Positions 1,312 through 60,400 of a DNA stretch of 64,000 nucleotides are shown one piece after another. Location of the stretch: positions 1-64,000 of the forward strand of contig QPGO01000219.1 of the NCBI GenBank assembly GCA_008632985.1, written 5' to 3'. Position 1 is the stretch's first letter. The number at the start of each line of letters is the position of its first letter. The notes under the pieces are model-generated. The model saw only the letters and a list, made by a program, of their open reading frames with translations. It had not been told where the DNA came from and did no database searches. Origin of the DNA: Psammoneis japonica. Its lineage: Eukaryota. The translations under genes and the position numbers were made by a program.

Positions 1312-2855
1312 ATGAGTGCCAAACAAGAAAACATGTCGATCGACGACATTTACGCCGAAATGGATCGTGCCAGGAAAGTTATCAAACCCATACCTATTTC
1401 TGTTGCTCTGCCACAGTCTTCTTGGGTGTACCTGTTTGGTTCTTTGGCATTCTGCCTGTTACCGTAACTTATCAATTGGCAAAAGCGATTCTCCAACCTT
1501 TATTGCCCAAGTCAAAGAGGATTCAGTAGAACCGGTAGACAAGACCCTCCCGTCTGATGTAACTCCACGTGAAAAGAGAAAGTATGACGTTGTGATCCTG
1601 GGAGCTACGGGCTTCACGGGGAAGATTGCAGCGACTCACATTGCAAAAACATATGGCGTCGACGGCAACAAGGTCAAGTGGGCCATTGCGGGTCGATCGA
1701 CATCCAAACTTGCACAAGTCAAGAAAGATATCGCTGCTGAATTGAACAGTTCGGATATCGATAAACTGGATACTTTGGTTGTGGACACTTCTGATTTGTC
1801 GACTCTTCCAACCTTGGTCAAGGATACAAAGTGTGTCATTACGACGGCTGGACCATTTGAAAAGTACGGTTCAAACGTCGTAGAATATTGCGCAAAGTAT
1901 GGCACGCATTATGTGGATATCACAGGAGAAATCGAATGGGTAAAGACAATGATTCTAAAGTGGGATGATGTTGCGAAGCAAACCGGTGCGATTTTGTGTC
2001 CACTCTGTGGTCATGATTCGGTTCCATGGGATTTGACTGTATACCAGCTGACACAAATGCTCAAAGACGACAAGACAAAAGAAGAAGTCAAGAGTGTCAC
2101 ATGTTTGGATGATGTGAAAGGAGAAGCTTCGGGTGGGACGCTCGATACTATCTTTTTGGCGCTGGACGGCAAGGCCACGGCGGCGCCCAAGACTGAGTTT
2201 GACCCTCTTCTCAAGACACTAGATGGCAGTAAAAGCGCCCATCGCACGAAGAATACCAGTCCCGCGTTGATGATTGAGAAGTTAGACAAGAACGCACCTG
2301 GCAGGTACAAGTCTGCCTGGGCTATGCCGTTCGTTATGGCTGAAGTCAATGGAGCCACCGTGAAGCGGAGCAATGCTCTCCTCGAGACGGTGTTTCTCCT
2401 TGACATACAAAGAGGTGCAGGTCATGCCTGACTTCAAGACAGCGTTTGTCTCCATGTTTGGTATGGTGGCTGGAGTAACCGCGCTACTTAATCCTCTTAC
2501 AGGCGCGCTCGTTAAGAAGGTGCTTCCTAAACCAGGTCAGGGACCATCTCCAAGCTCAATGGAGAGGAACTACTTGTGCATAACCGGTCAAGGCCTTGGC
2601 ACTTTGGGTAGCCTTGCAGAAACTGTCATGTATTTCTCCAAGGATGCTGGGTACAAGGAAACAGGGCGCATGGTGGCCGAAAGCGGATTGTGTCTGGCTT
2701 TGGACGAAAACAAACTCTCCGCCAAGCAAGGCGGATTTTGGACCCCTGCAACGGCCATGGGTGACTGTTTGTTGGATCGCCTCTGTGCGACCGGTACACT
2801 TTTTGCGTCCAGGATGGTTACTGAAGCGGACGGACGTTTGAAAAGCAAATTATAA
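1312..2855 (+). CDS. Saccharopine dehydrogenase-like oxidoreductase (SCCPDH family), broken across reading frames
   Basis: Rossmann motif YDVVILGATGFTGK, WAIAGRS, TTAGPFEKYG, HYVDITGE, CGHDSVPWDL, SGGT and C-terminal PKPGQGPS...DAGYKETGRMVAESGLCLA...GGFWTPATAMGD. ATG at 1312. Frame changes near ~1445, ~1515 and ~2385 with no convincing intron (sequencing indels or pseudogene). Confidence 0.85.
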
Positions 2856-2959: not shown

Positions 2960-5900
2960 TCAGATGCCAGGCTTCATTTTTCGGCGTGTTTCCTGGTAAG
3001 TTAACGTTTCGCAGTTGCTTCTCAGAACACGTTGGTCCGCAGTGGCACTAGAAGATAGGTCATCCTTTGCAAACTTAGAGCAATGTGATTGATTCAATTC
3101 TTCGCTGCAGGCTTTCATGTACACCTCGCGAAACTTGCCCCTGTTCATTTTCGGCAACCCAGAAGCACCAATGGCGACTGCAATTAACTTTCCCATGTCA
3201 GTACTTGTACCAATCGTTGTTTTGTCTTTTGACAGCAGATATTGTGCAATAATGCCAGTTGGACTGGACTGAACGAGACGTCGGGTGTGTCTATATATCG
3301 TCCAGGCATCAGCGTTGGGGTCGTTGTCCGCTTCACTGTTGCCAAGACCTGTGGAAACAAAGAAAGGCTCTACTTCCGTCCCACCAAGCCATGACGGTAA
3401 GAAGGAAGGCGGGTTTTTCTCGATTGACGTGGGTTCAAGCTTTGAACGGTAATGAGTTATGTTGCCCGCACGAAACGACTTCTCCACACTATCGGAACTC
3501 TCCCATCGAAGAACATGATGAGGAGGAATACCGACAAGCTGCATCGTTTTCATAAGTTTTTCTTCGAACAGATCGAAATCTGCGGACAATTTTATTTCAT
3601 CGAAGCAAGCTGCGCTCTCCGTCCGTTCGTCGTAGCCCAGATGAAAGTATTCGCTTGAGAAGATTTTCCGCAACTCGAAAACTACGTTGAACACCATCGA
3701 CAGAATGGCAGGATAGGTGATGTCCAATGGAATCCCATAATCTGTATCGCACATCACATTGGGACAATTGGCGACTAAACCCGATGAGAACCAGCCTCCT
3801 GCACGAGATACGACGCTTAGTTCGGGCATGACTTTGATACCCTTTGCCGCAGCAACTTTGACGAGCTCCTCGACCTGCGAGACGTTCGTCACGTTCTCCT
3901 TTGACAACGTCAGAAGAGGAGCCCAGGTACGTCGCCTGGGTGTTTGTTCTGTTACATTTCCGTTCCAGGCAATCCTTGGGTGAGACTCCAAAGTCAACGG
4001 AAAGGAAAAGTCATCAAGTAGACGAAGATGAATCAAGTTGTACCCGAGTCGAGACAGAACGTTAACCATTCGCTCGACATTTTTCAGATCGTTGACAACA
4101 GAAATATCCCACGTTACGCCCAAGTGAGGTACCACGCGGTGAAAGAGCAATTTCGTTGTGTTAGTACTGCTGACACGAGGTCCACTGGGGACCTCTCCAA
4201 AGCTCTCCCAAAAGGGTTCGACCGACAACGCGACCTCCTTTTGTGAGTTAACCACTGGCTCCCCCTTTTCATCAATCTTAAGGTCTTTCATGAGTCGCAC
4301 ATCGTAGGGTTCCGTCAGTCGGTCACATGTAGCAGCCTTCCAAGTAATCCAATGGGATTTCCACTTTTCAAGCCACTTGTTGGTGAACATCAACGGTTTT
4401 CCATCTGCCAAACACGTTTCGTCCGACCACCCCAACGATCTGCAAAAGTGAACATACATTTCTGACGACCATTGCAAGCTCTGCCCCTCCTTGGAGGCGC
4501 CCATAGCCACGACCAATAGACGCCCATAAACGTTCCGGTCCTTCCACCAGTTTGTACTCAATTCAAATGTCCCAGCAATAATACCCTTTGGATCCTCGCC
4601 GACGAGCTTCTGTGTGTGAGAAAAGAACTCTGGAGCCGCCCTTTCCCCACAGCTGTCAAAGTAGAGACCCTGTGATACAAAGAATTCCCCGTCTCTTCGC
4701 TTGTTTCTTGGAAACGTTTGCCACCAATGTACCATATCTCCGGCACGGACGTTTATTCCTTGTTGACCAGTTGTTTCCCATCGAACAACCTTATCTTCGG
4801 GCATTCTCAATTCCTTCAAAACTCTCTTGAGCCCCGCTTCGAAATCGTTGTACTTAGGCATCACCTGACCTATCTCTTGATAACACGCGCTACTCATGTG
4901 GACTTCATCGCCTCCCAAATGAATATACGGACTTGTGTGGAATATCTCAGAGACTTCTTTAATGACGTCCTTCAGCACACCCAAGAGCTTCGGGCTTGTT
5001 TCGTTGAGAGGCACACCATAGCCCTTTTCGCAGGCGAATCTAGGACACGGTACGACTAGCCCTTCTACTCCACTCCACGATCCGCAGTGACCTGGAGCGT
5101 TGATCTCGGGCATAATGGTGATGTTCTTTTCAGCGGCATACTCGACGAGGTCTCTCAGTTCATCTGTAGTCCACACAGGATTTTCCTTCTGTGGGTCTTC
5201 TGCTGTTGCCGGAGCAGGCAACGCCAGCTCTGGGTGTGATTTTAACCTGACGTTGAAGGCTTGGTCATCGGTAAGTCGCAAGTGTATGAAATTAAAGCGC
5301 AACATGTGCAGGTCGTCCACAAGTTTCTTAAGCCACGTAAGAGGAAAGTAGTGTCGGCCACCATCGACCAAGACACCCAAATACGGGACGGCAGGGTGAA
5401 ATGGCACCATTGTGGCAACTGACGGAGTCTTCAACACAGCAATGGGTTGCTCAACCATTGTCTTTTTCTTTGTCTTAACCTTGATAATCGTTGTAGCGTT
5501 GGTAGTGTTGATGCAATAGTAGCGTTAGTAGTGTTTGATGCAACAGTGAGGTTGGTTGCATTCGTCTCTTCATCGCATTCGTCGCTACTTCTCGCTCCTC
5601 TTCAACCTCCACCTCCTTTTCCACTGTCTCTACAAGCCCAAGTGCTTTCTTCCACTTGTCTGCAGCGGATTCGACAGGGGAAGGGTCTCATCCGTGTCAG
5701 CATCATTGTCGAGAACGAAATCCTTGTAGTCATCATCGTCTTCCTCTTCGTATGGTTGCTCTTCAGACCCCACAGACTGAATTACCACATTCCAAACGAC
5801 AAGGATAGTATTCTTGCTGAGTTTGAAACGTTTCTCCGTTTTCCTATCATCGACAGTTTGGCTATAAGGCATTGTAATAGTCGGCGATCTCCGGGACATG

Positions 5901-6678
5901 CATCCACGAGGTTTTCATCCAACGAGCGAATCAACTGGTTTCTCCCTAGCAAGATCTTTTCTGGTGTCCTGCCCGACAAGGCATAGATATGGCCGTTTGC
6001 AGTCTCTCTGTGAGCCGCGTAAGTAATTGCCACGAACTGGCCCTTTCTTGACTTGTTCTTGCACTTGTTGCTAACAAGGAATTGAACTTTGCCATATTTG
6101 GTATTCCTCGATGTTCCTGCCACGTTGAATCTTCCATTCTTATTAATGTTCTGTGGATTCGTAAACGGATTCTTGACTTCTGCTTTGCGTTCTGCCTCTG
6201 CTTTTCCCGCTTCGCTCCGTATGCTAGGGTCGGTAACTTCTGGTTTCGTCAGACTTAAGTTCTTTGGATTTGTCAAAGTTTCCTTGATTTCTGCTTTGCG
6301 TTCTGCCTCTTCTTTTACCGCTTCGCTCAGTGTGTTAGGGTCGGTGGTTTCTATCGTCTGATTAGCTTCATCTGTGTTCTTCGCCGGCTCTTCATTTGTT
6401 GTTGTTGGTTTTTCTCCTAAGTCTTCTCCATCCTTTTCGCTATTCTGTTTTGCATCTTGGCTGCTATTCATGGACAGATTCCTTCCTGTAAAGCTATCCA
6501 ATCGAGCAGCGAGAGCAGTGTCGGTGTCGCTTGCATGGCTCGAAGATGGCAGCGCGATCTGTGAAAGCCACGTCAAAGACACCAAACAAAACAACAGTAA
6601 ACCAGTAATGGCATGCCGAAGTCGGGTAGCAATCCCCTTCTTCTTCCTTCGAGGGGAACGCTGCGGTAGCTCCGCCAT
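2960..6678 (-). CDS. Type II membrane beta-N-acetylhexosaminidase-like protein with two tandem GH20 domains (main ORF 2960-5458; N-terminal TM/stem ORF 5782-6678 joined through frame breaks)
   Basis: Domain 1: GVLVDGGRHYF..HLRLTDDQAF, MPEINAPGH, HLGGDEV. Domain 2: HLRLLDDFSF, MPELS, FHLGYDER. Upstream ORF has a basic N-terminus plus a hydrophobic anchor (HAITGLLLFCLVSLTWL). The join between the ORFs is inferred. Confidence 0.8.
6150..6345 (-). repeat. Internal 111-bp (37 aa) coding duplication in the GH20 stem region
   Basis: tgctttgcgttctgcctct occurs at 6181 and 6292; peptide EAERKAE(I/V)K..TNP occurs twice. Confidence 0.8.
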
Positions 6679-7114
6679 GGTGATTACTACTTCTACCGGT
6701 AGTTACCGTCTGCCGTACTTTGCCAACCTACTCGGGACAAAATCCAACATGCCAGGCAAATCCGGGTCTTTATTGGATGTGAACGCGTGTCGTATTCAGT
6801 AACTTCGGACCACTCCCAGCTTGGGACTTTGGACAAGCTACCGGTAGCAAGTAGGCCTACCTACCCCGAAGATCACGAAGTCAGGGTATTATAATGCTTT
6901 CGAACGATTCAGCATGAAGGGGCATACGGACACCAACTGGCCACTCTACCTACGTAGAGAAGCAAATCGAGGAACTGTGATTTGCAACCAACGATTAGAA
7001 GCACTAGAGCCACTTTGAGACTCCCCTTTTTAGTTATAAGAGATGATACTGACAAACAGCGAGCCCAAACCATTTCAGATACTGACTCTACTATTTCCTG
7101 CCAGCAGTACAACC

Positions 7115-15999: not shown

Positions 16000-18900
16000 A
16001 CTGACATTTACAAGCCTTGACTACTCGATACAACAATAAGGATGATTCAACCCTTCCAATGTCAAGAAAAACACCGCAACCTGCTGTTCGTGACTCAGAA
16101 TCAGAATCTAGCTTTTCTCCCGATCAATAGACGCGTTTCGAAATCCGCTAAGGACTCCTTTGCTTCTAAGCAGTGTGTCACGGTCTCTTTGTTGCGCTAC
16201 TCAAGACAAGGACAACAAACACAGTGCAGAGCGGAGCGGCGTTGAACAGCACTTGCCCGTCTTGGTTGATTTTATGTCTGCTGGTGCAAAGCCGCGTTGA
16301 GTTTTCAGTTTGGTAATCATCCCCTGTAGATTCTACGTGAAGTTCGGGTTTCTGTCATGGCGCACGTGCAAGCTACGTAGAAAGTAGTACTCGCTATTTC
16401 AGTGGTCGTACGGCAGGCGTTAAATTCGAAATATTTTTATTCAGCTTTTAGTACAACATAAAACGTGACGGTCTGTCTGGCTCCACGTTCCAGCACAGAC
16501 CTACATACGGTACACAGACAGACCCACCATACCACACGGCCGCCATTACAAAAAAAATTAAAAATGCGATGTGCGAGCCTGCAGTGTGATTGTAGGACCC
16601 TCTCTCTAGCTAGACTCCTTTCAATGTGAAATACCGGCAGGTAACCAAGCCGGATGCAACACCTTTGGACTGCACCAAAACTTACCCAACTTGCAAAAGC
16701 TTCACAAAGACAGAGACTTGCTGGTTTTCTTTGCCAATGCGGGGGGTCTTGGAAAGCCCACAACGAAGGAAACACATGAAGCAGACACAACTCTTTACGC
16801 ATGGCACATGGACGTTCGAGATTCATACAGACTTGTATCGTGAAGCTGTCGAAACAGGAATTTGAAATTTTTGGAAGACTCCTCTCAAACGCCTTGGCTC
16901 ATTCAGGAAAATCGGTGAAGAATTTCCGAGTTTCGAAACAGTGGGAATTGGTTCTTTGATCCATTAGAGAAAGCATCAGTGCCGCACCGTCTTTCATGAG
17001 TCCAAATTCAATGGAAAAAGGCAACACAGATCTCAGTGCCCACTATGACCTTTCAAACGATCTGACAGCGGGCTCCAAGGGATTGCAACACTAAGGATGC
17101 AGAACACCGTAAGGAGTCGAAATCCCGGAGGAGGACTTGCGCAGTATCTTTCTGCGAGCAAGCCAGAACTCTCATCACCGGTAAACTCGACGGGTACAGT
17201 ATCGATTCCAAGCGTCTTCGCCGTCCTCGCTGTCTTAAAAAAAAGGTCTCTTCAAAGGGTAGTAGCACCAACAAACCTTGGCCCTCTTTTCCAGCTCGAC
17301 CTGTGCGTCCGAAGCGGTGAATGTAGTTTCCTTGATGTCGGGTGCTCCATACAGTACACCCGTTTTAATTCAGTACGAGACGATTCTTCAAACTGGGATG
17401 CTCGACCTGCTCAGGAGCGATAATGACGCGCAGGCAAGTTGCGCGTCGCTTTTCCGTTCTGGTGGGTACTTCAACTCTTTTTGTTGTTACGCAACACGGC
17501 CGGCAGTCATCATCCAATCCATCCATCAAATAATCAAACTCGAGAGGTATCATCTTGTCTACGAAACTTGCCCCACACTGCACTCCACACTGAACTGTGC
17601 TCGAAAGCGTTTCGTTGTTTGGGATGCTCAATAAGCCCTTGTACAGGTAGGGCCTACCGGTACATTGTATGGTGAAGTTCCCGTTGCTCAAGTACTCTTT
17701 TGTATGCTTTCAAAACTGGCGGTATGGTCAAGTCGATTCGACCATACGTACATTGAAGAATTTCCGACTTTCGAAGTAACGAGAATAATTGGTGCTGTGA
17801 TCGACGATGCTTTGGTTGATGGTTGATGAGGATGTCAACAGCGACAAACACAACATCATCATCTTGGGTGATGATGCATGGATCGATGGATTCTGGGCGA
17901 ACATTCGGTCGGCCACGCGCGCACCGCGCGCACAGTTTGCTCGAAATTCGTGACTACGAAAAACCTACGTTGATTTTACTACCACGAGATTCTCGCCAGA
18001 GCGAGAAATCCGTTGGGCCGTCGCGACTTGGCTCACAATTTCCAAATTCAGCCGTTTTGTTGCTGGTCGATTGTTTTTCTTTGTTGGCTTCCAAGCGGTG
18101 AGTGTTGGTCTTGTGCAGTTCCGTTCTGATTGTTGTTACGTTCGATTTCCTTGTCACACGTCTTGTGTGTCACTTCTGTTTGCAGCAACGTTGAGAGACG
18201 CTCTGGCAGGTGTCAAACGACAAATCAAAGCTCGGATTTACCGGCAGTGTCGAGTTTGAAATCGACTTGAAAAACCGTTGTCCTTTCCGTCTGGCGAGAG
18301 GTAAGAATTTCTTTGCATCGCTGTTGCATTTGTCCGTTCTCCTCTTTGTGGAAGTCTCCCTGTCTCTGTCTCTCTCTGACAAACATGCTTCATTTTCGTC
18401 TTTCCCGCAAGTGAAGCTTGAAGGTTGTCTCGCAGGCCATTTGAATCAAGTGTGGCGATGTTCACGGCACCATCGTCATCGGATGAGGACTCACCATGGG
18501 AGGATTCACCATCAACAAATGCCCTCTGTGAAGAGCGCACTCGGGACTCGCACAATGGAAAGTCCAAACGGAGGAAGGGCAAATGAGACAATGACCAGAG
18601 TTGGGACAAAAGGCGGAAGCTGTCTGTTGAAGCAAAGCCATCAAATGAAAAGATGCTGTCTCCCTGGTGCTGTTTTGCCAACAACATTCCTTTGCCCGAC
18701 TCGATGTCATCCCACACTCAAGACCGTCAAAGCCATGCTGCTGCCACAAATGGGACAAGCGAATCGTGTGCTGTCAAGCGAATGCCATCTTCATGTGCAG
18801 CGTCGGTAAAACGAACGAGTGAGTTTGCCGATGGAAAGCCACAAGTTTTGAATAGAAGCGCTGAAGCTGGCGGCTTCCCAGAAGAATCTTCCGTGAAGAA

Positions 18901-19062
18901 GCGCCAGCGAGGTCCAGGTGAGATCGTGACTCACTTTGTTTGTTTCCTGCATGATGATGATTGTCGTCATGAAACTCATTCTTGTCAATTTCATCTCATT
19001 TGTTGAACACAGGCATGGATGGAGCTTCTGATGCTACAACCAGTGGTGGGGTTGACGCGGAG

Positions 19063-19623
19063 NNNNNNNNNNNNNNNNNNNNNNNNNNNNNNNNNNNNNN
19101 NNNNNNNNNNNNNNNNNNNNNNNNNNNNNNNNNNNNNNNNNNNNNNNNNNNNNNNNNNNNNNNNNNNNNNNNNNNNNNNNNNNNNNNNNNNNNNNNNNNN
19201 NNNNNNNNNNNNNNNNNNNNNNNNNNNNNNNNNNNNNNNNNNNNNNNNNNNNNNNNNNNNNNNNNNNNNNNNNNNNNNNNNNNNNNNNNNNNNNNNNNNN
19301 NNNNNNNNNNNNNNNNNNNNNNNNNNNNNNNNNNNNNNNNNNNNNNNNNNNNNNNNNNNNNNNNNNNNNNNNNNNNNNNNNNNNNNNNNNNNNNNNNNNN
19401 NNNNNNNNNNNNNNNNNNNNNNNNNNNNNNNNNNNNNNNNNNNNNNNNNNNNNNNNNNNNNNNNNNNNNNNNNNNNNNNNNNNNNNNNNNNNNNNNNNNN
19501 NNNNNNNNNNNNNNNNNNNNNNNNNNNNNNNNNNNNNNNNNNNNNNNNNNNNNNNNNNNNNNNNNNNNNNNNNNNNNNNNNNNNNNNNNNNNNNNNNNNN
19601 NNNNNNNNNNNNNNNNNNNNNNN
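19063..19623. other. Assembly gap (N run)
   Basis: Run of N, adjacent to the tandem duplication. Confidence 1.
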
Positions 19624-19730
19624 CCACAAGCAACTGCTGCCCGTGATGCGGACTGTCGAGGATTGCGTCAGAACATGGCTTCTGAGAAAACAAGTGAGCT
19701 TCGCGCTGCTGCTGCTGCTGCTGCTGCAGC

Positions 19731-22650
19731 TGGCACAGCAAAGCCGCCGATTCCCACAGGACAGGAAGCTGTTGCTCCAAACGAGAAGGGGGTCCTTTGC
19801 GATGACACGAATCGTCCGCGTGTCCACTGCGCTCGTTCCGGCAACCCCGTCGCCGCTGCTGTGAGCACTTCTGCCGCAAGCAAGCCTGAGTCTGGAGTGC
19901 AAATAAAAGCCAGAGTCAAGAAGAAGAAACCACATTGTGCACTCAATCCCCTTCCGAGTGTTCCTGAAGAGTGCAATGTAATTGATGGTGCGACTGCCAA
20001 ATCCAGTCGTCATCAGAGTGGTTGTTGCGAGAAAAAGAATGGCACAGCCAATGAAGCCATCGCAGTGGCTGCCAAAGATGCAAAAGGAACCTTGGAAACG
20101 GGCGACTTGAAGGGGAAACCTTTCGTGGGAAACTGAAACCGAGGTCAAGGTAAGACAACGACTCGCATTTCTTTTGGTCCAGTCGATCATGACTGTTCAC
20201 GACCGTGTTGTCATCGCCTTCATGTCAATTGTTGAGTTTAGTCGCAGTCACCGAATCTTCGCGTGACAAGATGGGAACAGCTGGGATTTCTGATGGCGAA
20301 AAGGAAGCGGAGCGATGCAATGTGCACAAGAGTGAGGGCCGTCGGAAGAACGCAGAATGCCCTAAAACGATCAGCGCTGACTCAACACCTGTTCAGCTCG
20401 GCAAGGTCCCTCTTTCGAGTGCTCTCGCGAGCAAAGAGAACACAGGTCCGAACGGGACTGACCAAACCAAGACGTCTGTGAGCAATTGTGAATTCAAAAT
20501 GAGTCGTTCGCAAAGAAACACGGCTCCAGCTCCTCCACTTGTCCCAACCGGTAAAGCTGCAGCTCCCAAGAAATAGAGAACTTTACAATGTGGTGGTGAA
20601 CGGTGCGGTCGTTCCGAGAACGAGAACACTGCCACCAATGAAGATGCATCATTTGTGGCAGCCCAAGCCTCGCCTTCAGTTGAAAATGGAACTCCTGAAA
20701 TGGCCGGTTTGTCGAAAGGACATGCCTTGAACATCACAGGCAGGAAAATGGTTCGGTTTGTTTCGCTGTGCCTCGTTCTTGACGAGGAATTTGTTCTTGC
20801 CACTTCCACATCTCGTTCGTTGCGCATAGACGCCGATGGCGGAGCGTGCATGACAAACTCCGGGCGTGATGTTAACGTGGACGCACCCGCTGTTACGAGT
20901 CAACTTGGGAAGATCCAAGCCAGGACGCCTGACATGAGTTTGAAATCGGGATCAACTGAGCACACGAGGAAACAAACGGCTGCTTCTCCGGACGTGTCCG
21001 TTTCTACCATGGATTTGGAAATGCCAAATTTCAAGCTTAGAGATGGTCATCACAAGACCACAATGAAATTTGATGAACTGGATTCATTCCCCATGCAAGA
21101 GCCTGGCAAGGAAGCAAACGAAGAAGACGTCGATGAAGAAAATGAATCTGATGCCTCGAGTGCCTTTTCTTTAGGATCTCCGCCTGTTGTTGTCACTGGC
21201 ACTGCGGTCAATGCTTCATTTAGTGCTCCCGTCGCTTCGTCTGAAGAATCAAGCCGCAACCGAATCCCAGCTGGTGCAGCAAAGCCACCAATTCCCACAG
21301 GACAGGAAGCTGTTGCTCCAAGCGAGAAGGGGATTCTTTGCAATGGCACGAATCGTCCACGTGTCCACTGCGCTCATTCCGGCAACCCCGTCGCCGCTGC
21401 TGTGAGCACTTCTGCCGCAAGCAAGCCTGAGTCTAGAACGCAAATAAAAGCCAGAGTCAAGAAGAAGAAACCACATTGTGCACTCAATCCCCTTCCAAGC
21501 ATTCCTGAAGAGTGCGATGTAATTGATGGTGCGACTGCCAAATCCAGTCGTTGTCAGAGTGGTTGTTGCGAGAAGAAGAATGGCACAGCCAATGAAGCCA
21601 TCGCAGTGGCTGCCAAAGATGCAAATGGAACCTTGGAAACGGGCGACTTGAAGGGAAAACCTTTCGTGGGAAACCGAAACCGAGGTCAAGGCAAGACAAC
21701 GACTCGCATTTCTTTTTGTCTGGTCGATCATGACTGTTCACGACAGTGTTGTCATCGCCTTCATGTCAATTGTTGAGTTTAGTCGCAGTCACCGAATCTT
21801 TGCGTGACAAGATGGGAACAGTTGCAATTTCTGATGGCGAAAAGGAAGCGGAGCGATGCAATGTGCACAAGAGTGAGGGCCGTCGGAAGAACGCAGAACG
21901 CCCTAAAACGATCAGCACTGACTCAACACCTGTTCAGCTCGGCAAGGTCCCTCTTTCGAGTGCTCTTGCGAGCAAAGAGAACATGGGTCCGAACGGGACT
22001 GACCAAACCAAGACGTCTGTGAGCAACCATGAATTCAAAATGAGTCGTTCGCAAAGAAATGCGGTTCCAGCTCCTCCACTTGTCCCAACCGGTAAAGCTG
22101 CAGCTCCCAAGAAACAGAGAACTTTACAATGTGGTGGTGAACGGTGCGGTCGTTCCGAGAACGAGAACACTGCCACCAATGAAGATGCATCATTTGTGGC
22201 AGCCCAAGCCTCGCCTTCAGTTGAAAATAGAACTCCTGAAATGGCCGGTTTGTCGAAAGGACATACCTTGAACATCACAGGTGAGAAAATGGTTCGGTTT
22301 GTTTCGCTGTGCCTCGTTCTTGACGAGGAATTCATTCTCACCACTTCCACATCTCGTTCGTTTCGTATGGACGCACGCTCTGCCCGTGTTGTTGTCTTGG
22401 ACGCACCCGCTGTTACGAGTCAACTTGGGAAGATCCAAGCCAGGATGCCTGGTGTAAGTTTGAAATCGGGATCAACTGAGCACACGGGGAAACAAAAGGC
22501 CACTTCTCCGGACGCATCCGTTTCCACCATGGATTTGGAAATGCCGAATTTCAAGCGTAGAGATGATTGTCACAAGACCACAATGAGATTTGATGAAATG
22601 GATTCATTCCCCATGCAAGAGCCTGACAAAGAAGCAAACCAAGAAGACGA
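19731..22650 (+). repeat. Tandem duplication with 1541-bp offset (copy A ~19731-21130, copy B ~21272-22650)
   Basis: Near-identical sequence, e.g. AKPPIPTGQEAVAP...KKKKPHCALNPLPS...MDLEMPNFK twice; landmarks 20150/21691 and 20829/22370. Confidence 0.97.
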
Positions 22651-24479
22651 TGAAAATCCCACGCCCAAAGTTACAGAACCTGTTGTTGCTGCATCATCAA
22701 TCCAAATGGGCGACTCTTCCGGCGGATTGGCGCACGCTGCCAATGCAGGAAGTGAAACCGGCGGCTTGCCAAACAAGCCCTCCCCCAGAAAACGCAAACG
22801 AACTGCAGGTGTGACAGTTGCCCATGTTTTGCTTGTTGCTTCTGTTGTCTGCTGTCAACATTGATGCGACCCCCTTCTCATCGGTGTCATCTCACTCGTT
22901 GAACACAGACTCTGAAAATGTGTCTTTTAGCAACGATGGAGAGTGTGAATCTGATGCCTTGGGTGACTTTCCTTTGGGATCTTCGCCTGTTGCTGCCACT
23001 GGCATCCTGTCCAATGACTCATTTAGTGCTCCCACCGCTTTGTCTAAAGAATCAAGCCGCAGCTGAATTTCAGGTGAGAAGATGATTCCCTTTTCATCGC
23101 TGCCTGTGTGATTTCATTGTTGTTGACACTGCCTCTTGCCGGCATCATCTCATTTCATTGAATGCAGACACAGAAAATGGATCTTCTGGCGAGGTTGAGA
23201 GGCAGCTTGATGCTTGCGACTCTGTTGAAGAAGAGGAAGAAGCAGCCAAGGCACCCATGCTTCCCACGACAGCCGGTGTCCGTGAAGCTGGTGGGTGGCG
23301 TGGCCATCCCATTCAAGGAGCGTCGGATGGGCCAGGCCTGGCTTCGAATGCAACCGTTGATGCGACTGAGACCAATGGGTCAATGGATCCAACAAGCAAA
23401 TCCACTTCCACTTGCTCGAATCATTCAGTTTCTACCATGTCATCTCGTTTGCTGAACAGAGACAGAGACCACAATGGATCTTCTGGCGAGGGTGACTTGC
23501 AGCTTGCTCTTTGTGACTCTGATGAAGAAGAGGAAGCAGAAGAAACCAATGAAGGTGCACCCACGCATTTCATTGCCGCCGGTGGCTGCGGAGGTGCCAG
23601 TGACTTGGGTGGCTCTGTCATTGGGGGGGTGCCTGATGCCATGACAGAAGATGCCGAAGCAGCTGTGAGTGAAAGCGACGATTTGGACAGCCTAGATTTA
23701 GGGGCTCCACCTGCTGCTGCGACCGGGAACTCTGAGCAAGCTGTAGAAAAGGCTGCCAAACCTTTGGAAAAAGGACATCGTGTCAAGAGATGGAAAACTG
23801 GCACAGGCGCTAGGTTGATGACTCAAGCCGAGGCTTCAAAAACCGGGTTGAGCTTCGATGAAGGGCTTGCACCGGTGGGTCATTGCATTCCGGACACGCT
23901 TCGTCTTGTCTTCCTTAACATGGTTCACGACAAAAACGTGAGAAGGAGATTAAAGATGTCCAAAGCGGCGATTCGAAAGGAATTGGGCCAATGGGTGGCG
24001 TCCGAGAAATGCATCTCTTTTTGTGCGAGAAAAGGATTTGAGGCGCAACTGTTGTGCCGTGAAGAATCTCGAAGTAAAATGGCGTTGCTTCTGAAAGAAG
24101 AAGGCGCATGTCTTGTCATTGTGGATTGCATGGACAGGGTCAAAAACGTGATGGCCAAGCATGCAGTGGCATGTTTTGCGAAGCATGGTGTCCTCGTAGA
24201 CACTGAGCCTTGCACTCACTTCGTCAGGCTTGAAGAGAAGGATCGAGGGACTCTTAAGCGCCGAAACAAGACGTCCATCAAGAAAGCAAATCGCATCTTT
24301 AAGAAATTATTTGACGGCGAAGAAAACAAAATGTTCGAAATGTGCCAGATTTCAAGGAAAGTGTAAGAAACGGGTGGTCAGGTTCGACAATCAGTTGCAT
24401 AGAGCGCAATGAAACCATTTTGTAAACCACTGCATAAAATTGTAAGGAGAGACTTAAGACAGTGGCATTCTAGACGCGG

Positions 24480-27400
24480 TGACAGCCACCAGCCCATGAG
24501 GGCTTTACGACCAATTCAGAACACATCAGTGGCCAATCCTTTGGCAAACTGGCAGACAAGCTGTGCAGCAGAGCTGACAGGCTGAATCTTGATCTCCAAA
24601 GCCTCAACCCCAGTGCAAAACCAGTGGCATGGAATGCCGATGGGCTTGGTTCATGGGGACAATTTAGGCATGCAAGCAAGCTGGGGGCAAGCAGCATTGT
24701 CTTCATACACAACAGATGCTGGCAGGTTGGCAGCATTGATGGGTGAGGAATCGGTGCTGTCGTTGGCCTGCAGGAAGGCCTCGGAGTGGGCAGTTGCCTT
24801 GTTGTGAGCATCCGGTTGTGCAAAGATGTGCGTGTTAATTTCCTTCAAGATCTTGCAAAGGGGGATGAGATCGCACATTGCTTGGGAGAGTGCGACATGC
24901 TCGGCTTCCATCCCAGAAAGTGCTGCCAGGGTCTGCAGCTTGGACACCCAGACGATGGGACATCTGCCACAACAAACAACACAACTGGTGTGTGACTTGA
25001 AAGAAGTGAGGTTTTGTCCATCTTCAATGCCAAAGAGTCCTGCAAAATCAGCAACAACATGACAATCAAGCCAGCGATCTGCAGTGGGTGCTCGGATGAG
25101 ACCCTTGTCAGCAGTGTCCTTCAAGTGCCAAAGAATGTGCTTGATTTCAACAGCATGGGAGGCCTTGGGAGCAAAGGAGAACTGAGCAACTTGGTGGGTG
25201 GCACAGGCAATGTCCGGGTGGCTGTTGGATGCCAGATGTGTCAACATGCTGACCATGGGCCGACAGTTGCCACAAGGTTCATCGAATGATGGGCCTTCAG
25301 AACCACTGCCAGCAGGTGCAGGAAGTGTGGGAGCAGGAGCTCTGTTGCAGTTTTCTGTCTGGGTGGCATGCAGCACTTTCTCAATTGGGCCAGGTTGGGT
25401 TCGCAGAAATCAGCCATCCTTGAGTTTCTGGATCTTCTTGATGCAAAAAAGTTGCCGACTTTGCCTGCATCATGCAGGTTGAATGCATGGCATTGCTCAT
25501 CATTGGAGACACCCAATTTAGCAATCTCAGCTTCAAGTTCTACAGATGACACTCTGGTGAACAAATCATTGTCAACACATGCCACGCACAACATGCCCTT
25601 CTTGAAACAAATGCAAGGGTTGACAGCAGACTGAATCCATCCTTGTTCAATCAATCCATGGTGCAGCTTTTCACAGAAGCACTTGGGAGACTGGCAGAGT
25701 CCATGCAGGCCTTTCAACAATTTTGGTGCCAAGTCAGCACCTGATTTCTGCTGAAAACCCTCAGGAGGCTCCACATGGACTTTCTCCTTGACATCAGCTT
25801 GGAAAAAGGTGGTGGTGCAGTCAATTTGATGAGTGGCCCAACCTTCTTTGAGCACCATTGTGAGGAGAAGCTAAATTGATGACCATTGCATGATGCGCAG
25901 GTCTTAAAACAATCAACACCTTGCACATCTGCAAATCACCATCAACACAACACTGGGCTTTGTGCTTCAAGGGTGCACCATCAGAAAGTCTTTTAAGCCA
26001 GAAAGCCCATGTGCCAGGCAATGCATTCATGTCGTCAGTCCTTGGCACGATTTCCCATGCACAACCGCGGAGCAGCGCATTCATCTCAATCTTCATGGAC
26101 CCATTTGTTGGCCCTGTGACTGCACACAGCTTCATGCAGGGATGGCACATCAGGGTCCTTGTGTTTCTTTGCAGTTGCACAAACCCTTTGCGCAAACCCT
26201 GGGATCATCAATGTTTCAGGTCTGCAAATCAATGCAGGTGTCCAGAGCAGCAAGATGCACCAACTGAGCTGCAGTCCCAAGCAACTCGTCTTTTGAGTTT
26301 GCTGGAGTAAAGAAGACTTTGTCCATGAACCTTTCAGACAGCAACTGACCCTTGTTTGATCAACTTGAACAGCACAGTGGAGGAGCTAACTCTGGAGAAG
26401 TGGAAGGAGGAGATTCCGGTGTTGTTGGCATTGTTGGAGGAGCAGGTTCAGGCAGAGTGACAGCAGGTGGTGGTTTTAACTCTGGTGGCAGTTCTGCAGG
26501 AGCACAGGCAGAGGACTGGAGGGTCATCAGGTGAATTGGGAACTTCAATGTGGACATCAGGTGTGTCTGGTGGAGGCAGTTTGAAAGCAGTCCATGCCTC
26601 TGAGCGTGAGTGGATTGTCTGGGATCTGCAGGGGCCCGGCAAAGTCATTGATGACAGAAGTGGTTTCAGGGTCACAGAATCACAGAAGTCAAACCCGTGA
26701 TGGTGGATGCTTGGAGGTGAGTTCTCACAGGTGTCATTAAAAGATGGGTTGCTTGCTTCATGCACAAGGTCGTCCAACATGCTGTCTGACAGTCTTTCCA
26801 TGTGACTTGATGTGGCGCAATGAAACACAACTGGATTCTTGATCTCTCATGCAGTGTGCAGGCTGAAAACAACTCAAGAGCTGGCAGTTCCAAGTTAAAG
26901 GAGGACAGAGCATTGGAGAGCTTGTGGAAATTGTCAGTGTCTTTGAGGTCAACCGTCTTGACCAAGATTGGAGCTGGTTTGGCCATGGCAGTTTCCCTCT
27001 TGGCCATTAGAGCAGGAGTGAAAGATGCAGAAGCAATGACCACAGGAGGGCTGCCCACAGCATTGTCAACAGGAGTGCACCACATGCCACAATGGACAAG
27101 TTCTTCATTGGCGTCAGAGTCCTTGTCCAACGGTGGAGCCATTGTTTGCTCAGGAGGACCAAATGGGACACCCGCAGAAGGATCATTTGCAGCAGAGAGA
27201 TTTGCTGAAGCAGCGGCACTGGAGGTGGGTGAAAATTTGCTGGTGTGTTCAGCACTTGAATGGCCTTGGCACATGCCCATCTCACCAGTTTCCTTGTTGA
27301 TGCACTTGTCACACAATTTCCAGAGCATGCCTTTGTCATCAGTGAGGGTGGGTCCCTTGTTCACGAAATGCCAGGTGGGCTTGGAAGGTTTTGGTTTTGG

Positions 27401-37034: not shown

Positions 37035-37960
37035 TGTCAGATTTGAGTGGCTGTGACTTCCCTGCACACCTCTGCACAAGGGATGCACCACAGCATGTTT
37101 GTCCGCAGTTTCTGCCAGTTCACAATGTCACAGATCTTAGAGAAGTGCAATGGGCTGCATCACATCACTGCAGCCATCATGTCCCTCTCCAGCTTCCATG
37201 CTGCACCCCGTCAAGGCTGTTTGGATTGCACCAAACATGTCTGTGGATTCTTGTGCAAGATGCAACATGGTGCCCTGCAATTGCATGCCAAGGAACATGA
37301 CTGTTTGGACCTTTCTAAGCCTGTGCATGACTGGGCTCAAACCACACATGGTGATGTGGAGCAACTGATTCCCAAAGACATGCGCAGCCCTCTTGGCAAC
37401 TTTGTCGCCATGACCCATTGTGTTGATGCAAGCTTGCTCCATTGCATGCTCACTGGATGCTGTCACAGGCATCATTCTTCATTTCCTCAACAAGTTTCCA
37501 GCTGATTGGTTCCTCAAGAAACAAGCTGCAGTTGAGACTGTGACTCATGGATCTGAGTTGTTTGTTGCTGCTGGGATGTGTGTTGAACAACAGATCATTG
37601 ATCTGTGCATCACATTGCATCACCTTGTTGTCCCAATCCACAACACATGTTGCATGTTTGGGGACAACAAGTCAGTTGTGAACAGTGCCACCATCCCCCA
37701 CTCCAAGTTACACAAGCAACACACCGCCCTCTTGTTCCATCATGTGCATGAGGCAATTGCCTCCGGTTTCCTCAAGTTCGACTTCCTTGAAGGTTCCTGC
37801 AACCCCGCTGACATCCTCAGCAAACACTGGGGTTGCTCCCAGGGTTGGAACCTCCTCCATCCTCTCATGTTTTGGAGCTTTGATCCTGAGGCCTTTAGTC
37901 AATCTAACTTTGAATCTGTTGCTGTGGACTCCTCAAGCAAACTGAGGAGTGACAGGATTT
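37035..37960 (+). mobile_element. Copia (CoDi-like) RT C-terminus and RNase H, followed by a probable PPT/3' LTR start (gaggagTGACAGG, 37944-37956)
   Basis: MSLSSFHAAPRQG, THCVDASLLHCMLTG, WFLKKQAAVETVTHGSE, CMFGDNKSVV, HSKLHKQHTALLFHHVHEAIASG, NPADILSKHWG. Confidence 0.92.
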
Positions 37961-39829: not shown

Positions 39830-40570
39830 CACATCACATTTTTCTTGACGCAACAATGCAGATGAGCACTGATGGTTGATGTGCAGGAGTCATTGGCTCT
39901 CCCAAATTTGCGTGAGAGGCCAATGGATGAACATGATGACAGTGTGGTGGCAGCACTGTCAGCACTTTTCTGCTGCCATGCAACAGCACAATGTTGTCAT
40001 TGACATGACAGCACAGATGAGTGCCAATGGCTGGTGCATCAGAATGGCCCATTTTGCTCAAACTGCAGGAGCTCATCATTTTGTTCAAACTTGCATGAGA
40101 CTGGCACCACTTTCATGATGGTGTTGCAAGCACTTTTCTGCAGCCTTGTTGCAGGGTGTCTTTCTTTGTGACACAGATGAGTGCTGATGGCTGGCACAAG
40201 AAGAGAACAACCACTTTTGCTCAAATTGTGGGAGTCACTGGCTTGTTCAAATTTGAAGGAGAGACCAATGGTGCCAACACAATGACAACATGGTGGTGGC
40301 ATGTCAACACTTTCCCACAGCCGCGCCACAACAGCATGTCTTTCATGATGTGACAAGACTGCAGATGAGCATTGATGGCTGGTGTGAAGGAGAGCAGCCT
40401 GTTTTGCTCAAACCACAGGAGTTCATCACATTGTTGTTCAAGCTTGCATGAGACAGCCAACAGCATTTTTTTGCAATGATGATGTGGCGGAGTTGTCAGC
40501 ACTTTCTTGCAGCCTTGCCACAGTGTGTTTTTCTTGACAAGATGGCACAAATGATTGTTGACGAACATGT
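39830..40570. repeat. Degenerate tandem array, about 5 units of 155-188 bp
   Basis: Anchor cagatgag..(t)gatgg(c)tg at 39859, 40014, 40174, 40362 and a variant at 40548; shared ttttgctcaaa, ttgttcaa and cagcacttt motifs. Confidence 0.75.
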
Positions 40571-57421: not shown

Positions 57422-60400
57422 TCACTTTTTCTTTTTCGTCCTTCGGTTGTTTTGCGCCTCCTTTAATTTCGTTTGTAACGCTTCTGAAGCACGAGCGTCT
57501 TTCTTATTCTTGACTGGACCTTTGCTGATGGGTGTGGTGAGAAGCGCGCCATTGATAATGGTTCGATAAGTGCTTCCCTTCCCATCAATCGTTCTTCCGT
57601 GGGACGTTTGAACCTTGTTGATTTGCGCGTCCAAAAATGCCATATCGTCTAGTTCATCCAACTCGTGATCAGTATCTTTTGTCGACGCTCCGCCACCAAG
57701 CTTTTGGGCATTCTTCTTTTTTGCTTTTTTCTTCTTCTTTGGTTTCGGTTGCTTTTTACATTGAGACTCCTTGCTTTGAACAGCGGCCGAGGCACGAGCA
57801 GCTCTTTCTTTCGCCAAGTCGCCCAAGAGACTGTTCATTCCTGACTTTGATGGATTATTTGTCTTCACTTCCGCATGAACTTTCTCTTCTTTATCGTCTT
57901 CTGAATCGACGTCCTCGCCCAATTCTAACGCTGTAAACGCTGACATGGCCATTGCCGGCTCCTCGCCGAAAGCATCATCATTGGAAGCATGACTCGCATC
58001 ACCCGGCGGCGTGACTGACTCTTCTAGCTCATTCTCGGGAGTAACTTCAGATGCCTCTGCTTCTTCCACGGTTGCGGCAGCTTCTGGTTTAGGAATCGTC
58101 ACCTTGATGCGACGGTTCTTGCCTTCCGTGCCTTCACTGACGTGTTCCAGATGCAGTTCCTCCGCGATCTCGTGTACGAGCTTTCTATCAAGCTTGGACA
58201 GCTCAGTACTCAAGATCATCTCGGCGCCTGGTTCATGGCTAGAGACAAACTCTTGAATCGTTGTTCGCAAGGCAACCTTTTGGTCCTCGGCACTCGGTGC
58301 TTTGTATGCAGCTTCGCTTCGAGGCTTGACCGGCTTCTTCGTCGTATCCGCCTTTGTTGCATCCTCCATGATGATTCTTTCCAAGTCCAACTCGGCTTGT
58401 GCGAGATCACACGCATATTGGCCCTCCACTGAATCAGACATGAGTTCGAATGCCGAGCGCTGTTCTCCGTGCTCTTCGATCCAGTCGATCAAGTTCTTCA
58501 AAAACGGACTCTGGGATACAGTGTCGGTGTCGGCGACCACACAACAGTGTCGCTTGGCTCGGGTGACAGCGACATTCAGACGTCGATCGTCCTTGAGAAA
58601 CCCAATACCCTTGATCCCTCCCCGATTGCTGCTACGGACAAGACTCAGAACAACCGCCTCCCGCTCGCCTCCCTGGAATCCGTCTACCGAGCGAATCTGA
58701 AGCTTTGGTGCGTCGGGCAGAAGAGCCAAACGAAGAATCTCGACTTGACCATTGTAGGGAGTAATCACGGCAATCTGATCTTGCTGAACACCCATTTCAA
58801 TCAGCTTTTGGACGTGCTGAATGACCAGCTGAGCCTCTCCTTCGTTGAAGCGGGACCCAGCAGCATTCTCGGACTCGTGCATATCACACCCCGCAGTGTC
58901 AATCAGCAATAGCGGTGTTTCCTCCAGTCCACAAGTATCATCCAAACCGACGCCAACGGGGGTTGTTCCATTCAACTGTGCAAGAGTCCGGTCCCTGACA
59001 GTTTTGTGTGTCTCTAGTTGTCCATGATAAAGCGCCTGACTTGCCCAATTCGCAATCCTTTCGTGCATGCGATACTGAACCTTGAGCATCCGCGAAACAC
59101 GGCCTCCACCACTGGTGTCTCCATACAATTGCATGACGCGTTCAAACATGGTAACAGCTAGTCCTTTCTGTACAAAAGGATCGTTGCTTTGGATAGTCGG
59201 TGGTAGCTGACAATGATCTCCTGCCAGGACCAGTTTTGTTCCTGCCTGTAGTGCAGGGATCCAACAAGCAGCTTCCAACGCCTGCGCGGCCTCGTCGATC
59301 ACAACCATGTCAAATCGTTGATCCCGTAGCAACTTTTGATTTGCCGCTCCAACACACGTGGCGAGGATAACGTGTGCATTGTCCATGAGCTCCTGCACTA
59401 CCCGTTCTTCCCGCGTCCGCAGTTCTTTCCGAAGTACCTTGACTTCACGGTATGCCAGGCGCTTGTCCCCGCCCCGGCCATTTAGTATTTTCAAATAGGA
59501 CTGTAGTTCGGAACGAACGTCATTAACAATCTCGGTTCCATCCGCACCTTGTACAAGTGCCTCCAAGCTGTAGGGCAAAATGGAAGTTTGCAATCGCGCG
59601 GGATGTCCAAGGCGCACCACCTTGAGCCGCTGTCTTTTCGTATTGCGACTTGTCTTCTCACCAACCAGCTTGCTCAACACGTTATCCACCGCAACGTTGC
59701 TAGGAGCTGTCACCAGTACCTTCCATCCATGTAGCTTGACCGCTTGTTGAATAAGTTCAACGACGGTAGTCGTCTTTCCCGTTCCTGGCTGTAAAGAAAT
59801 GAGTTAGTATCGAATCGTCCGTGTCAAACTCGATTTGCCTTGCAATCTGAACGTACCGGTCCGTGAATCAACGAAATGGGTTGACTCGTTGATAGAGAAT
59901 AGGAAATAGCTTCTCGCTGACTCGAGTCTAGATTCTGATTGATTGGGTGAAAGTCCTGCAACGGAACAGATTCTGGGTTTGCGGGAACGTCAAAAAGTGC
60001 CTGTACAATCTTGGATGCAACTGGATGGCCCGCGCCCTTGCTATCGAGTTCATCCAGAGCACTGACAATTTTACGATGCACTTCAATGTTGCTTCGAGGA
60101 AGTAACGAATAGGGAGGATTTCCTATTGCCGTTTCTTCACTATCGTCGTCATCGGCTTTCTGTGTTTTGTTCTTTTTTGCTTGAAACAACGCGACAGAGA
60201 TGGACCTGTCTGACACTGCGCTAACCACTCCAGAACTGTTGTTGCTGCTGCTGTTTCCACTTCGAATCTCTACTTCATCTCCCGTGGTGAACTTATGAGC
60301 AGGTAAAAGAGCATCGTCGTCCTTGGAAAACACCACCACGGTACGTCCATACAATCCAACAGAGACGTCGGCCGAGCTCAATTGATGGAGGACATGAGAC

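Follow-up and report, generated by a model that had tools for sequence, protein, structure and literature searches.

The 64,000-nucleotide stretch of Psammoneis japonica DNA analysed here (NCBI GenBank assembly GCA_008632985.1, contig QPGO01000219.1, positions 1 to 64,000 of the forward strand; hereafter the window) contains an intron-bearing gene that holds a tandem duplicate. Our main reading, to which we assign a probability of roughly two in three, is that this duplicate in a diatom gene lies within a sharply bounded stretch of TA-specific hypermutation, at approximately 18.0–52.1 kb, where TA dinucleotides have been turned into CA or TG. From the window one can read the pattern of this change, the direction it took, where it begins and ends, how its rate compares with background and what motif it follows.

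Main features, by position in the window:

18000–24500 (more narrowly 18195–24366), plus strand: gene holding the duplicate, intron-bearing, belonging to no known family
19727–21267, plus strand: copy A, made up of an exon, a 92-nt intron, a 498-nt exon, a 90-nt in-frame intron, an exon and a tail (21131–21267)
21268–23076, plus strand: copy B, with A's exons, an open frame throughout, extra sequence at 22650–22933 and a tail (22934–23076)
19063–19623, no strand: assembly gap of 561 N, which may conceal more copies of the duplicated unit
24500–52000, no strand: transposon-relic domain, with both TA and CG nearly erased

Differences between the two copies

The original prediction, made from the letters alone, had described tandem copies at an offset of 1541. 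These were found again by repeat finding, local alignment and self-BLAST, which agree in matching copy A at 19727–20832 with copy B at 21268–22373. Copy A then has 21 extra bases (20833–20853) after the offset-1541 block, and a second block (A 20854–21129, B 22374–22649) follows at an offset of 1520. Relative to A, copy B has an insertion of 285 bases (22650–22933), intron included, and the tails (A 21131–21273, B 22934–23076) are 81% alike.

A and B differ at 88 of 1382 aligned positions (93.6% identity), by 73 transitions and 15 transversions. A count of substitutions by context, which the original prediction had proposed as a check, splits the 88 differences into 28 that form 14 CA/TG doubles, in which one copy has CA and the other TG, 10 singles of TA against CA or TG, 16 singles of CG against CA or TG and 34 others (19 transitions and 15 transversions). 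Dinucleotides unchanged between the copies number 8 for TA, 69 for CG, 99 for CA and 96 for TG. The CG to CA/TG changes that had been described beside those of TA are thus present as the 16 CG singles. All the individual TA to CA/TG sites quoted in the prediction were recovered in place in the A/B alignment; the three TA/TG pairs among them exist, but in reversed order, copy B being the TA carrier in each.

Sites in the A/B alignment, all on the plus strand:

T 20151 in A, C 21692 in B: donor site, aagGTAAG against aagGCAAG
20823–20829 in A, 22364–22370 in B: acceptor site, cgCAtag against cgTAtgg
19894/21435: TA/TG pair, tcTGga in A, tcTAga in B
20688: TA/TG pair, aaTGga in A, aaTAga in B
20724: TA/TG pair, caTGcc in A, caTAcc in B
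19734–35: CA/TG double, ggCAca/ggTGca
20011–12: CA/TG double, cgtCAt/cgtTGt
20792–99: CA/TG site, ttTGttctTGcc/ttCAttctCAcc

Triple differences are found at 20486–88 (TTG/CCA), 20741–43 (CAG/TGA) and 20932–34 (ACA/GTG), each of which is explained by an ancestral TA plus one ordinary transition.

Evidence for ancestral TA and its independent loss

A stationary reversible four-state model (CA, TG, TA and CG), fitted to all cells of the dinucleotide table except CA/TG, expects 0.87 CA/TG doubles, against 14 observed (Poisson P for 14 or more = 7 × 10−13), so that ordinary two-step change via TA or CG cannot make them. CG is excluded as their main source, since A and B both retain 69 of the 85 CG sites, a loss of ~0.10 per copy, and a hand calculation from the dinucleotide counts gives ~0.4 doubles expected from CG. 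At the intron 2 donor CG cannot have been ancestral, because GT is required there. The earlier reading of the doubles as opposite-strand hits on an ancestral TA or CG therefore holds for TA (14 against 0.87) but not for CG as the main source.

The extent of the loss was estimated with a burst model, in which each copy loses an ancestral TA with probability p and one double loss in two can be seen. The fit puts p at 0.69 per copy and the ancestral number of TA at 42, a density of 30 per kb. The flanks hold 663 TA in 18.0 kb and 471 in 11.75 kb (37–40 per kb), and the match between these densities indicates that TA content was normal at the time of duplication. Divergence at other sites since the duplication is 2.5% (1.2% per copy); relative to this background, the post-duplication hazard per base is raised 48- to 77-fold at TA and 4.5-fold at CG.

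Other repeats of the TA-depleted domain show the same kind of difference. Four repeat pairs inside it have 20 CA/TG doubles in 343 aligned positions, 6 in 176, 10 in 308 and 10 in 277, and a pair outside it has none in 91; the many doubles within the domain pairs indicate that these copies, too, mutated independently once formed. The pair with 10 doubles in 277 positions lies at 39886–40535, which holds approximately two copies of a ~345-bp tandem unit, 69% alike.

A TA-depleted domain with sharp borders

TA is erased only at ~18.0–52.1 kb (0–16 per kb, against ~40 per kb outside), and a general TA depletion across this DNA is ruled out by this confinement. CG is erased only at 24.5–52.0 kb (0–22 per kb, against ~55 per kb), its drop at ~24.5 kb coinciding with the end of a copia relic described below. 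The outer borders, at ~17.8–18.0 kb and ~52.05–52.25 kb, are each sharp to within ~200 bases. Over the whole window the ratios of observed to expected counts are 0.31 for TA, 0.58 for CG, 1.49 for CA and 1.47 for TG; the flanks (1–17.8 kb and 52.25–64 kb) have 0.55–0.6 for TA and 0.9–1.0 for CG.

The gene, at 18.0–24.5 kb, has 57 TA against 366 expected, and 315 CG against 374. The corresponding figures for 24.5–52.0 kb are 103 against 1816 for TA and 212 against 1621 for CG, with CA (3101 against 1616) and TG (3326 against 1822) both raised ~1.9-fold, and the CA and TG surplus of 2989 there is close to the TA and CG deficit of 3122. AT, AA and TT are not depleted, which argues against a general AT-to-GC drive. 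Because the gene lost TA but kept CG, the loss of CG is separable from the TA process, and in the transposon part it appears to be ordinary methylation decay.

Six-frame translation of 24000–52500 gives 80 stop-to-stop open reading frames (ORFs) of at least 110 aa, overlapping on both strands. With TAA and TAG erased, TGA is the sole stop left, so these long ORFs are not evidence of genes; for 32 of the 33 domain ORFs tested, Pfam gave no match.

Direction of change from a copia relic

The domain contains two transposon relics:

24489–26205, minus strand: Ty1/copia reverse transcriptase (RT)–RNase H relic, with RVT_2 and RNase H, the outgroup-polarised record
37459–37875, plus strand: second copia polyprotein relic, C-terminal end, adjoining a very high-copy segment at 37.6–38.3 kb

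The Pfam domain RVT_2 was detected in the ORF at 25241–25870 (minus strand; E = 2.5 × 10−13). A full HMMER search with the RT relic returned 4972 relatives, while a word-indexed search with it among longer proteins gave no match. The relic was traced by tblastn with 53 relatives of at least 600 residues; with P0125, 24489–26099 was matched at 40–49% identity, and the order is that of Ty1/copia elements, RVT_2 followed by RNase H. The element is dead, having stops, frameshifts and CVDN in place of the catalytic YVDD.

Conserved columns were defined as those in which at least 60% of at least eight homologues agree, of which there are 188. Conserved Tyr is kept in none of nine, the relic having His (CAY) in six, Cys (TGT) in two and Pro in one, and conserved Arg in only two of 12, with Gln in three, His in two, a stop in two and Trp, Cys and Lys in one each. 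Residues other than Tyr and Arg are kept in 106 of 167 columns, and control residues fare well: Gln 7/8, Ser 4/4, Pro 9/11, Lys 12/16 and Glu 7/9. Conserved His, Gln, Cys and Trp are mostly kept as well (His 2/3, Gln 7/8, Cys 1/1 and Trp 3/4), with losses to Pro, Pro and Phe. Since the conserved Tyr and Arg columns are those lost, TA to CA/TG and CG to CA/TG are the derived directions. The original prediction had taken the direction to be TA loss, and the relic, serving as outgroup, bears this out (Tyr 0/9), although one polarised change, considered below, goes the other way. For other hypermutated copies in metagenome contigs, a single-protein scan found no relative.

Sequence motif

Retention of TA in 24.5–52.0 kb relative to the flanks depends strongly on context, being 0.72 for TTAA, 0.40 for CTAA/TTAG and at most 0.07 for all other NTAN. 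For VTAB (where V is not T and B is not A) it is at most 0.06, with CTAG at 0.06 and the others at 0 to 0.05. Among the 103 surviving TA of the domain, 35 lie in TTAA, compared with 52 of 1130 in the flanks (Fisher P = 5 × 10−18), and 30 in CTAA/TTAG; 84 have a TTA/TAA half-site, compared with 416 of the 1130 flank TA (Fisher P = 1 × 10−18). The tandem duplicate has the same preference: all eight TA kept in both A and B have the half-site (P about 3 × 10−4), and none of the 14 CA/TG doubles has a 3′ A. At 24255–24506, where TA density seems normal, nine of the 11 TA lie in spared contexts. Because TTA/TAA half-sites survive and no double has a 3′ A, the target looks like 5′-TAB-3′ (equivalently 5′-VTA-3′).

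Frames and splice signals of the gene

Intron 1 (92 nt; A 20150–20241, B 21691–21782) was recognized by three-frame translation, its removal correctly joining frame 0 to frame 2. At its donor, A reads GTAAGA and B reads GCAAGA (21691). In A and B alike, intron 2 (90 nt; A 20740–20829, B 22281–22370) keeps the frame and contains no stop, and its ends resemble those of other introns of the same gene (repeat families D5 and D7). Here it is copy A that has the damaged donor, GCAGGA (20740) against GTGAGA in B (22281), a change absent from the original prediction. At the acceptor, A has CATAG and B has TATGG.

The donor of intron 1 in B, AAG/GCAAGA, fits a GC-AG (U2-type) intron, the consensus being otherwise strong and the exon phase matching, and as a good GC-type donor it could still work. 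A retained 90-nt intron would keep the frame. The proposed destruction of splice sites is thus correct in so far as TA-bearing splice signals were changed in both copies; functional destruction is not borne out, in view of the good GC donor and the in-frame, stop-free intron 2.

Copy B has one open frame per exon, without interruption. The frame of copy A is interrupted twice, by TGA at 20134, where B has CGA, and by TAG at 20574, where B has CAG; the former is CpG decay. Exons and introns diverge to a similar degree, the ratio of nonsynonymous to synonymous differences (pN/pS) between A and B is 0.70, and the copies seem to evolve close to neutrally.

Tyr is absent from the 1514 codons of the gene's open frames, whereas five ORFs of the flanks have 1.3–3.2%. 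Cys is raised in most of the gene's ORFs and His in two. On the coding strand of 18000–24499, TG numbers 542 against 367 expected and CA 459 against 374, a TG surplus approximately twice that of CA; the cause may be an A-to-G change that favours one strand through transcription, or simply codon usage. Pfam yielded nothing for three of the gene's ORFs. The last 190 residues of the product resemble a folded domain; no homologue was found for residues 240–426 of the ORF at 23086–24363.

Independent reads and the assembly

One independent DNA run from the same organism (X1), which contains 54% of sampled window words, gave contigs that differ from the window at 385 positions in 20 kb (310 transitions and 75 transversions). 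The 33 events listed, covering 40 of the 385 differences, comprise four CA/TG doubles, one ACA>GTG triple and five TA singles, together with 10 CG singles, one AA>CC double and 12 other single changes. A surviving intermediate is seen at position 20793, where the X1 contigs have TA, copy A TG and copy B CA. The TA process had probably not yet ceased when the two haplotypes diverged.

At 19805–07, 20793, 21581, 22452 and 22558 the X1 contigs match neither A nor B, in some cases at depths of 116–154 against ~150, and these third versions, some near full depth, disfavour a simple misassembly of two haplotypes. The original prediction had named misassembled haplotypes with an unbiased spectrum as an outcome that would overturn it; the spectrum is strongly biased, and the third versions are present. 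Long full-depth contigs (e.g. 2397 nt, depth 123) agree to ~98% with the sequence poor in TA and CG; the reads themselves therefore carry the depletion, which is no consensus artefact.

In the assembly, A and B stand head to tail, and the gap ends 104 bases before the start of copy A. None of the contigs listed bridges the A/B junction at 21268. One X1 contig at half depth (77.6) connects 21270 with 23107 by a different stretch of 30 nt similar to the intron at 18918; the array may therefore be variable among haplotypes or run on into the gap at 19063–19623. We favour reading A and B as a genuine, or nearly genuine, tandem duplication within a diatom gene.

Flanking genes

The right flank contains a helicase ORF:

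57422–59803, minus strand: IGHMBP2/SMUBP2-type helicase ORF, with best matches in raphid pennate diatoms at up to 59% identity

The genera of the best matches are Amphora, Cylindrotheca, Nitzschia, Mayamaea and Seminavis. These matches speak against a dinoflagellate origin, a group considered for its working GC/GA donors and its hydroxymethyluracil at TpA. In the left flank, the ORFs at 2960–5524 (minus strand), 1316–2431 (plus strand) and 5782–6702 (minus strand) correspond to a glycosyl hydrolase family 20 protein, a saccharopine dehydrogenase-like protein and an FKBP-type domain, and have normal TA and CG. The window is eukaryotic nuclear DNA with short spliceosomal introns.

Proposed process and alternative explanations

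The history that we propose begins with a segment that, at duplication, would have had a normal TA content of ~30 per kb. Thereafter ~70–85% of TA would have been lost independently in each copy by transition of either base, T to C making CA and A to G making TG. Hits on opposite strands in the two copies would leave a CA/TG double, and a hit in one copy TA against CA or TG; TA-bearing splice signals (GTAAG, TATAG) would have been struck like any other TA. The same process, along with ordinary CpG decay, would have emptied the adjacent 27.5 kb of transposon relics, where CA and TG doubled, and its three-base specificity would spare TTAA and remove VTAB nearly completely.

We infer that an active process is aimed at duplicated, transposon or silenced DNA. 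For its chemistry we tentatively suggest adenine deamination at 5′-TAB-3′ on either strand, the simplest option: hypoxanthine would pair with C, so that TA would become TG on the strand that was hit and, read from the opposite one, CA. A thymine-directed modification or biased T:G repair would leave the same footprint. Taken as a whole, adenine-directed genome-defence hypermutation, in which a deaminase of DNA adenine, or a comparable activity directed at thymine, recognises 5′-TAB-3′ and is aimed at duplicated, transposon or silenced DNA, is a possible but still doubtful explanation; under it the process would still be active, because alleles differ by it.

Several observations weigh against TA-specific hypermutation as we have described it. 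The burst model expects 4.0 TA kept, 18.0 single losses and 10.0 doubles, against 8, 10 and 14 observed, so that some heterogeneity among sites, with a protected class, is needed; the sparing of TTA/TAA explains this in part. Three doubles in a TTAT context give a TCAT product, which should be rare under the half-site rule, and tetranucleotide gains by flanking base in the gene leave any hit-strand signal within noise. The TAG at 20574 in copy A, where the open frame of B has CAG, is a gain of TA. The X1 event classes, for their part, rest on the listed portion of the differences. Lastly, the segment at 37.6–38.3 kb, probably a long terminal repeat, has a word depth of ~35,000 in run X1, against ~150 elsewhere, and belongs to a very high-copy family, at least 90% alike, that is also TA- and CG-poor. 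This poverty is not readily explained by independent post-insertion mutation alone, and since the high-copy family shares it, some of the depletion may come from a master copy rather than having arisen in place.

A passive regional bias, in which old, neutrally evolving silent chromatin has come to equilibrium under methylated-CpG decay and either a slight context preference or, at TA, GC-biased repair or conversion, would fit the degenerate state of the transposon part (the 32 ORFs of 33 without a Pfam match), its methylation-like CpG loss and the near-neutral evolution of the copies. We nevertheless regard it as unlikely: ~70–85% of TA disappeared in the time that other kinds of site took to change by 1.2% per copy, the 48- to 77-fold ratio given above, the borders are sharp to ~200 bases, AT, AA and TT are undepleted, and the RT relic keeps 106 of 167 columns other than Tyr and Arg but none of nine Tyr. 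Distinctly less probable is that CA became TG in one step by tandem double transitions (with runs such as ACA to GTG), so that no ancestral TA is implied. Doubles and triples are frequent between A and B and also occur at the lower divergence between X1 and the window (four doubles and one triple among the 33 events listed), but no conserved His, Gln, Cys or Trp column of the relic has a His/Cys or Gln/Trp swap, and TA intermediates exist, as the 10 singles and as TA at 20793 in X1. The inferred ancestral TA density matches that of the flanks, and the triples are each explained by an ancestral TA plus one transition.

An artefact, whether of haplotypes misplaced in tandem beside the gap or of a modified base read as its transition partner, seems very improbable. 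The N gap 104 bases before A and the half-depth contig (77.6) that joins 21270 to 23107 lend it some credence, yet X1 has third versions at five places, some at a depth of 116–154, full-depth contigs match at 98%, so that CA/TG is fixed in the reads and is not a matter of strand-dependent bubbles, and misassembly would leave the substitution spectrum and the RT-relic result unchanged. CpG decay alone, with methylated CG deaminated on opposite strands in A and B, is scarcely credible. It could appeal to the 16 CG singles, to the near erasure of CG in the adjacent transposon domain and to TCGT being the commonest CG context, with three doubles flanked by T on both sides; against this stand the 69 of 85 CG intact in both copies with ~0.4 doubles expected, the 315 CG of the gene against 374 expected and the GT needed at the intron 2 donor.

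Comparison with known systems

If TA-specific hypermutation is confirmed as an active process, it would be a mutational mechanism not previously described and would add to the known forms of genome defence, in one of the major groups of algae. TpA would be erased, and with it all Tyr codons, TAA and TAG stops and TA-containing splice signals. Transposon proteins in such regions become undetectable, as the 32 of 33 ORFs illustrate, and host genes caught in the process lose all tyrosine. The tandem duplicate turns what would be a compositional oddity into a dated, directional measurement.

To our knowledge, all targeted hypermutation of repeats described so far is C-to-T change, in fungal repeat-induced point mutation (RIP) and its relatives and in APOBEC editing. 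Within those parts of the searched literature that were available, hypermutation of TpA to CpA/TpG is not described, nor are diatom domains free of TA. APOBEC and ADAR editing acts on the cDNA or RNA of retro-copies and is strand-asymmetric. The present pattern resembles it in consisting of deaminase-type, context-dependent transitions clustered in mobile elements, but here an intron-bearing gene is mutated, and both strands are affected (3101 CA and 3326 TG in the domain). The scarcity of CTAG in E. coli is ascribed to very-short-patch repair, a biased T:G process that turns CTAG into CCAG or CTGG. There, too, a TA-containing word is converted to its CA and TG forms; however, that effect concerns one tetranucleotide and is genome-wide, whereas here it is regional and CTAG (0.06) behaves like any other VTAB, all of which are retained at 0.06 or less, with TTAA at 0.72.

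Decay of methylated CpG, known from the CpG depletion of vertebrates and relevant to diatoms through the methylation of their transposons, resembles one component of the pattern, the change of CG to TG or CA with a matching surplus of both, which in the window is confined to 24500–51999 (212 CG against 1621 expected). Such decay leaves TA alone and cannot explain a gene with near-normal CG and erased TA, nor, with 69 of 85 CG intact, the A/B doubles.

RIP in filamentous fungi is premeiotic, depends on an enzyme of the RID/DNMT4 type, proceeds by C-to-T change, mainly CpA to TpA, and makes DNA AT- and TA-rich. The logic is alike: transitions at one dinucleotide, far above background, on duplicated or transposon DNA, with each copy mutated independently, coding sequence wrecked and sharply bounded compositional islands. 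Independent mutation of duplicated copies is seen in the 14 A/B doubles and in the 6–20 doubles of each of the four domain pairs. The gain of TA and loss of CA and TG that RIP would produce is not found; the domain has 103 TA against 1816 expected, with CA and TG raised ~1.9-fold. According to PMC9998398, the diatom protein DNMT4 is related to RID and is of unknown function; we treat any link between it and the TA process as a lead only. The change seen here, TpA to CpA or TpG (A:T to G:C), yields the reverse product of RIP, and does so in a diatom. If the adenine-directed interpretation is correct, the process would mirror fungal RIP in its chemistry and would be the first natural example of a programmed A:T to G:C mutator acting on nuclear DNA.

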